64,000 nt of DNA. Source: Escherichia coli (GTDB lineage: Bacteria; Pseudomonadota; Gammaproteobacteria; Enterobacterales; Enterobacteriaceae). The stretch is from NCBI RefSeq assembly GCF_041248615.1, contig NZ_CP158426.1; one strand, written 5' to 3'. The notes beneath the pieces were generated by a model, which saw only the letters and a list, made by a program, of their open reading frames with translations, made no database searches and was not told the DNA's origin. This document shows positions 59,097-59,201 of the stretch, in pieces (within the stretch, counting starts at the first letter, position 1; every line of letters starts with the position of its first letter). The position numbers and the translations under genes were made by a program.

Positions 59097-59201
59097 AAAA
59101 AAAAGCCCGGACGACTGTTCGGGCTTGTCTCATTATTTGTTGGATAAACAGTAACAAGGGTCCAACAGAAAATAATCTTTGTGACAATAAAGGCATATAA
59201 C
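59097..59201 (-). ncRNA. micC: MicC small regulatory RNA (about 105 nt)
   Basis: Minus-strand 5' end GTTATATGCCTTTATTGTCACA and 3' terminator GCCCGAACAGTCGTCCGGGC-T8 match my recollection of MicC; located between ydbK and ompN, divergent from ompN. The central part differs somewhat from my recollected K-12 sequence. Confidence 0.75.

Follow-up and report, generated by a model that had tools for sequence, protein, structure and literature searches.

The micC locus examined here raises the question of how a small RNA (sRNA) gene can resemble its Escherichia coli K-12 counterpart at both ends and differ from it in the middle. We asked whether the gene is micC, how its divergent part is distributed and may have arisen, and whether the RNA should still act as MicC. 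The locus lies in a 64-kb window, by which we mean the whole stretch of E. coli DNA that was analysed; the coordinates of its features are collected in Table 1.

Identity and parts of the micC allele

The initial annotation had placed a MicC sRNA at 59097-59201, divergent from ompN. The Rfam family RF00121 (MicC) matched 59089-59204 on the minus strand over the full-length model (1-123), with 105.7 bits against a gathering score of 90. The annotated K-12 micC (b4427, L001:4122-4232) was homologous exactly to 59201 down to 59097, showing that the annotated coordinates were exact. The gene is shorter than that of K-12, which has 111 nt. The nifJ-micC-ompN synteny is that of K-12, with ompN on the plus strand and micC on the minus strand, and a 5-kb stretch around micC is 100% identical to several RefSeq genomes, in which nifJ (ydbK) and ompN are annotated. 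The gene thus combines an RF00121 score above gathering with an ompC-complementary 5′ end, the position between nifJ and ompN, and a stem-loop plus a U-tailed terminator. Three Rfam matches were obtained in the window in all: MicC, the sok antitoxin RNA (113.8 bits; K-12 synteny identifies the locus as hokB/sokB) and RydC (92.5 bits), the latter two at 10314-10465 and 11025-11088.

Table 1. Features of the micC locus in the window
Feature	Position	Strand	Remarks
nifJ/ydbK	55544..59068	+	Convergent with micC; ORF and RefSeq annotation
micC gene, window (phylogroup-D-type) allele	59097..59201	-	105 nt; Rfam RF00121 and homology to K-12 annotated micC
Rho-independent terminator	59097..59126	-	Stem 59103-59126, U8 tail 59097-59104
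Linker (nt 65-74)	59128..59137	-	AAUAAUGAGA vs K-12 UAUAAAAAGA
Stem-loop 1 (nt 35-64)	59138..59167	-	Rfam structure line; inverted repeat
Single-stranded A/U-rich spacer (nt 23-34)	59168..59179	-	AAGAUUAUUUUC vs K-12 GAUUUUAUUUUC
5′ target-pairing region (nt 1-22)	59180..59201	-	GUUAUAUGCCUUUAUUGUCACA; identical to K-12 by alignment
Divergent haplotype patch	59145..59294	.	micC nt 23-57 and about 90 bp upstream of the start
Putative -10 hexamer TATTCT (-12..-7)	59208..59213	-	Read from sequence; unchanged in every Escherichia allele examined
Conserved upstream block (about -31 to -50)	59232..59251	-	20-nt run identical between alleles
ompN	59430..60563	+	Divergent from micC; ORF and RefSeq annotation of identical loci

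The 5′ ompC-pairing end and the terminator had been described as those of K-12, and alignment bore this out. Nucleotides 1-22 (the seed) are identical. In RNAduplex, the seed pairs with the K-12 ompC leader through 15+6 bp at -47..-14 (-26.5 kcal/mol), and the result is the same for both alleles. The ompC gene itself is outside the window and its target site was examined at the species level only, where the leader (-120 to +30) is at least 99% identical in 5358/5371 genomes. The seed is also invariant across 34 micC loci of other species, an invariance that is partly imposed by the seed-pattern search used to find them. At the 3′ end, the terminator is identical to K-12 from GACAAGCCCGAACAGTCGTCCGGGC on, apart from T8 versus T9; the 3′ part of the RNA likewise agrees with K-12 from GACAAGCCCGAACAGUCGUCCGGGC to the U-tail, save for U8 versus U9. 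The elements GACAAGCCCGAA...TTCGGGCTTTTTTT were invariant in 26 enterobacterial sequences. All E. coli alleles have an A.C mismatch (GAACAGUCGUCC) in the terminator stem, in contrast to cryptic-clade Escherichia, where the GAAC...GUUC stem is perfect. A simple terminator scan made no call at the micC locus because of this mismatch.

The centre had been noted as apparently differing from K-12 at several positions. The alignment showed that this was correct: 17 of the 56 aligned columns differ in nt 23-75, of which 12 are substitutions and the other five belong to a 5-nt deletion that shortens the stem-loop 1 loop. In the spacer there are three substitutions, all at its 5′ end, and the U-rich run is retained; the segment 59162-59175, which takes in the 5′ arm of stem-loop 1 as well as the U-rich spacer, is identical in all E. 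coli alleles compared. The 7-bp helix of stem-loop 1 (UGUUGGA/UCCAACA) is also retained, with an A-U seventh pair where K-12 has G.U. Its loop is 5 nt shorter than in K-12 and otherwise substituted. The linker variant is common to the window and an ST405-type allele (see below).

Comparison with other species indicated which of these parts vary. Since RNAalifold on a MAFFT alignment recovered the terminator only and not stem-loop 1, the latter was evaluated with an explicit structure. In 26 enterobacterial sequences, 86% of the stem-loop 1 cells were paired and 4/7 pairs were changed on both sides; for the whole MicC structure, 94% of cells were paired, versus 26-55% for slid controls. All 26 sequences share one architecture, in which the 5′ end and the terminator are conserved and the centre varies; the conservation of the 5′ end is in part a product of the seed-pattern search. 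MicC of Salmonella, Citrobacter, Klebsiella and the cryptic Escherichia clades has the same architecture as the window allele and ends in a GACAAGCCCGAA...UUCGGGCU7-9 terminator. The centre is the fast-evolving part of the RNA across Enterobacteriaceae, the loop of stem-loop 1 varies in length among species, and the differences seen in the window sit at such freely varying positions. Two further structural ideas about the centre were considered. Hairpin-loop inversion as a source of the loop changes was rejected, since visual comparison showed no resemblance between the window loop and the K-12 loop in reverse complement. For a lower A/U helix (nt 27-31 with nt 65-69), with a possible compensatory change of nt 26/70 from U-A to A-U, the evidence is mixed: one pair is compensated and its neighbour is broken, and the helix is absent from the Rfam consensus.

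Upstream of the start, about 22/96 positions differ from K-12. The putative -35 element reads TATACA in the window and TATACT in K-12. The block at 59232-59251 is almost invariant across Escherichia species, which makes it a candidate -35/UP or regulator site as judged from its sequence. A simple sigma-70 scan returned no consensus promoter at the micC locus, as expected of a weak, H-NS-silenced promoter (PMC5745476). In the same study, micC and ompN were found to be co-regulated under negative, H-NS- and sigmaE-linked control, and a 184-nt fragment served experimentally as the micC promoter; the upstream part of the divergent patch falls inside this fragment. No micC promoter differences were reported among seven clinical isolates in another study (PMC7177473). 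Upstream of ompN, a hairpin at 59372-59399 (TTTTCACTCCC / GGGGATGAAAA) has a stem that is largely kept among Escherichia species and a variable loop.

A divergent patch and its carriers

The divergence from K-12 is sharply localized. When 58.5 kb of the window were compared with K-12 in 200-nt bins, the most divergent bin was the one at 59101, with 37 differences; the mean was 4.7, the median 4 and the 99th percentile 16 (Poisson P about 5e-21, or about 5e-18 after correction for 1,159 bins). The edges were seen against the ST405-type allele (L049). Within the 150 bp of the patch, 33 columns differ, corresponding to 29 events where 3.1 were expected (P=1.3e-18), and there are 0 differences in both 58934-59144 (211 bp) and 59295-59351 (57 bp). 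Three identical runs are embedded in the patch: 59180-59206, which comprises the seed and the start site, 59162-59175 and 59232-59251. The putative -10 is unchanged as well.

The same comparison with K-12 revealed other differences in the window. The second-strongest divergence, 31 differences per 200 nt in bin 27401, was traced to 27470-27580, in the 5′-terminal part of the ynbA coding region (K-12 about 1,477,650-1,477,800). Near-identity was shown on one side of it, and it resembles a further short mosaic patch. Between the homologues of hrpA and ydcF, the window has a 2.85-kb segment that K-12 lacks (15370-18218), with an ORF for a 402-aa transposase of the Mutator family (15809-17017; PF00872, E=2.7e-119) and three short ORFs without a Pfam match. 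Conversely, K-12 1,465,063-1,474,004 (the ydbA pseudogene, IS2D and IS30C) is without counterpart, 13 nt being present instead at 31251-31265. Homology to K-12 stops at 61363; the Rac prophage and a ttcC remnant occupy this site in K-12. The window continues with an intact PP-loop (ttcA-like) ORF (61314-62249) and, on the minus strand, a DEAD-box helicase of the DbpA type (62378-63751); therefore, the strain is without Rac at this site (61314-63751).

To describe the distribution of the allele, a 116-nt micC query was compared with 5,426 complete E. coli genomes. Matches were found in 5,412 of them; 14/5,426 had none, and five matches were on plasmid-labelled records. Identity to the window was at least 99% in 500 genomes (about 9%) from diverse hosts, 95-99% in 1, 90-95% in 10 and 80-90% in 4,901. 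Thus, only 11/5,412 genomes were intermediate. With a query extended to micC plus 100 bp upstream, 454 genomes were at least 99% identical. The 371-nt intergenic region (IGR) is 88-89% identical to that of most genomes (4,733/5,412 at 80-90%), and the 5-kb locus is 95-99% identical.

Carriers were assigned to clones from published strain data. We take ST38 to belong to phylogroup D. The carriers 28Eco12 and 266917_2 are ST38 (PMC6963479), and the carrier EC6868 is ST69, phylogenetic group D (PMC10840416). A third allele was present in 96 genomes and combines a K-12-type stem-loop and promoter with the window-type linker. One of its carriers, WCHEC96200, features in a study of phylogroup-D ST405 isolates (PMC5762679), and we call the allele ST405-type. 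As seen in strains 98192 and WCHEC96200, it shares the linker AAAUAAUGAG, the terminator and both flanks with the window; unlike the window, it is of K-12 type in its spacer, its stem-loop 1 loop and its promoter region. The patch is present in ST38 and ST69 and absent from ST405. The window linker, shared by the ST405-type allele, lies outside the 150-bp patch.

Together, these data indicate that the feature is the orthologous micC of E. coli in the allelic form characteristic of phylogroup-D clones, ST38 and ST69 among them, a reading to which we assign a probability of about 0.85. The micC gene itself is already known, and the window carries a natural allele of this ordinary gene. Our literature search found no description of a micC dimorphism; the haplotype structure is a modest population-genetic detail that is apparently undescribed.

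Origin of the patch

The relation of the window allele to other alleles depends on the segment compared. In the flanks, the window and K-12 are mutually closest: 5/165 positions differ towards ompN and 1/34 in the terminator. This does not hold for the micC centre, where each Escherichia allele sampled is 17-21 differences away from the window and none matches it, while K-12 has only 10-13 differences from the cryptic-clade species. In the 96 upstream columns, the window has 19-25 differences from all Escherichia alleles sampled. When the complete patch is considered, identity among window-type sequences is 96.7-100%, and everything else is at most 84% identical to them, with 81-84% for other E. 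coli, 83% for E. whittamii and 75-81% for Citrobacter. The patch of the window is 82-84% identical to E. coli alleles of other types and to other Escherichia alleles without distinction. Polarization with four outgroup alleles attributed 14/17 of the centre differences to change on the window branch and the other 3 to change on the K-12 branch. Upstream, the differences were distributed otherwise: 6 window-derived, 8 K-12-derived and 8 ambiguous.

A donor was sought by several routes. The seed-pattern search covered one-genome-per-species contigs incompletely, as the E. coli and S. enterica representatives were missing from its results and E. albertii, E. fergusonii, E. marmotae and E. ruysiae thus fell outside its reach; it yielded 34 enterobacterial micC loci, none with a window-type centre. 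A metagenome scan with a window-specific 22-mer returned 13 contigs with a window-type centre, and no patch donor was among them, all 13 having E. coli-like flanks. L070, an apparent outlier, is diverged only in a mosaic stretch of ompN. This stretch is an observation in its own right: next to a window-type micC, L070 has 157 differences within about 500 bp of ompN (window 59900-60400), revealing an ompN mosaic in E. coli. The route via OmpN homologues also gave no donor. P0012, which is 85% identical to OmpN, belongs to E. coli and adjoins a K-12-type micC (L071/L072); P0002 and P0003 are not syntenic and are without micC. In two further metagenome contigs, L064 and L061 (window-type micC, 5 differences), homology to the window ends at 59404, just upstream of the ompN start, and 296 further bases of L064 are unaligned beyond this point. 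In these contigs, ompN may have been replaced or lost.

We consider it probable, short of confident, that the patch originated by recombination. This is suggested because the patch has sharp edges, few intermediates exist and the patch occurs in two flank backgrounds. The second background was detected in L047 (JBEHAAB-19-0176), which carries the patch with two differences and has flanks that are about 2% different from those of the window and K-12-like on the ompN side. Homologous recombination would have brought the patch in from a diverged, as yet unsampled lineage, or would have moved an old allele around. The alternative is that point changes accumulated at an accelerated rate in situ, in one phylogroup-D sublineage, under relaxed constraint or positive selection and with no foreign DNA. 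This account is possible, if on the whole unlikely. It is consistent with the rapid evolution of the MicC centre across species, and the 14/17 centre changes derived on the window branch fit a lineage-specific burst. Furthermore, the partial allele of ST405, also phylogroup D, shares only the linker changes, and neither the metagenome scan nor the seed-pattern and OmpN-homologue searches found a donor. However, divergence in situ would have to place 29 events in 150 bp beside 211 bp and 57 bp with zero differences, and to leave intermediate identity in only the 11 genomes mentioned above. It must also accommodate a promoter half that changed on both branches, and the same patch in the flank background of L047.

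Recombination at this locus would resemble a process already known in E. coli, in which intergenic regions are switched by horizontal regulatory transfer (summarized in the Piggy paper, PMC5890482). As in the switched IGRs of that work, two divergent alleles lie between conserved genes (IGR 89%, flanks about 98% identical), the boundaries are sharp and there is some apparent flank incongruence at the micC locus. Unlike switched IGRs, the micC alleles are alignable homologues, and the patch comprises 150 bp only and includes a part of the sRNA gene.

Function of the allele

MicC of K-12 and Salmonella is established as an Hfq-dependent sRNA of about 105 nt that is transcribed divergently from ompN, and the window allele is presumed to encode the same kind of RNA. 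MicC represses ompC via the 5′ UTR, also in the ExPEC strain UTI89, and both Hfq binding and Hfq-dependent OmpC repression are known for the K-12 and UTI89 alleles (bioRxiv 10.64898/2026.07.27.741068). Salmonella MicC additionally targets the ompD coding sequence at codons 23-26, with RNase E (PMC3333887). In the window allele, translation of ompC would be blocked when the single-stranded 5′ 22 nt anneal to its leader at -47..-14, just 5′ of the ribosome-binding site. The scaffold that binds Hfq and confers stability would consist of stem-loop 1, the A/U-rich stretches and the U-tailed terminator. No change disrupts the seed, the stem-loop 1 helix, the U-rich spacer, the terminator, the -10 or the upstream block. 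Because all modules are intact and the differences are at freely varying positions, the window allele should, as far as its sequence tells, still work as MicC.

A decaying or non-functional micC copy is highly improbable. The allele does have the lowest RF00121 score among the seven alleles or species scored (105.7 versus 116-125 bits; K-12, 125), and it carries the 5-nt deletion in stem-loop 1. Yet this deletion is confined to a loop that is not of constant length across species, nothing is damaged in the seed, -10, stem-loop 1 helix, terminator or U8 tail, and the allele is maintained at 99% identity or more in the 500 genomes from diverse hosts.

It is also conceivable that the allele is functionally distinct in regulation, i.e., that the MicC level, stability, Hfq loading or seed accessibility is changed and OmpC control differs between ST38/ST69 and K-12-type strains. 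Some observations point in this direction: the changed upstream positions fall inside the 184-nt promoter fragment and include the putative -35, and strain-dependent micC expression has been reported (PMC7177473). In addition, ViennaRNA predicted nt 1-22 to be unpaired with 0.78 in the window allele versus 0.49 in K-12, and stem-loop 1 to be formed with 0.89 versus about 0.02, values that ignore Hfq and belong to ensembles in which the MFE structures have a frequency of 1-2%. The lower seed accessibility predicted for K-12 arises because its linker motif CAUAUAA can pair with UUAUAUG in the seed. The corresponding values for seed and stem-loop 1 were 0.74 and 0.62-0.64 for the ST405-type allele, and 0.82 and 0.57-0.72 for E. 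whittamii. Thus, the predicted seed accessibility of the window allele is like that of other species and unlike that of K-12. This argues against a distinct regulatory allele, since the predicted effect comes from the linker, which is outside the patch and shared with ST405. By themselves, neither these predictions nor the -35 difference should be given weight. Moreover, all conserved blocks are untouched. We therefore regard a change in regulation as quite unlikely.

More doubtful still is a combined scenario, in which horizontal regulatory transfer swapped the promoter-proximal region and the Hfq scaffold as one unit in the ancestor of ST38 and ST69, altering MicC expression, stability or seed accessibility and hence OmpC-dependent permeability. 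We take the part from nt 23 onward, which is variable here, to be the part of MicC that serves as the Hfq-recruiting scaffold in synthetic sRNAs. The MicC scaffold is a standard chassis for such RNAs, and synthetic designs use that of K-12; the window variant differs from it by a shorter stem-loop 1 loop and another linker. If the transfer scenario were true, the window allele would be a naturally validated alternative MicC scaffold for synthetic sRNAs.

The function of the allele matters since MicC controls the major porin OmpC and with it antibiotic entry, serum resistance, and fitness in the gut and urinary tract. An effect of the allele on MicC expression or activity would mean that porins are regulated differently in clinical ST38 and ST69 strains than in the studied strains K-12, ST131 and UTI89. 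The evidence points instead to a functionally conserved gene. The main value of the locus is then as a clean example of sRNA gene evolution, in which the seed and the terminator are frozen and the centre is free, and also as an example of a short recombination-like patch that extends across an sRNA and its promoter.
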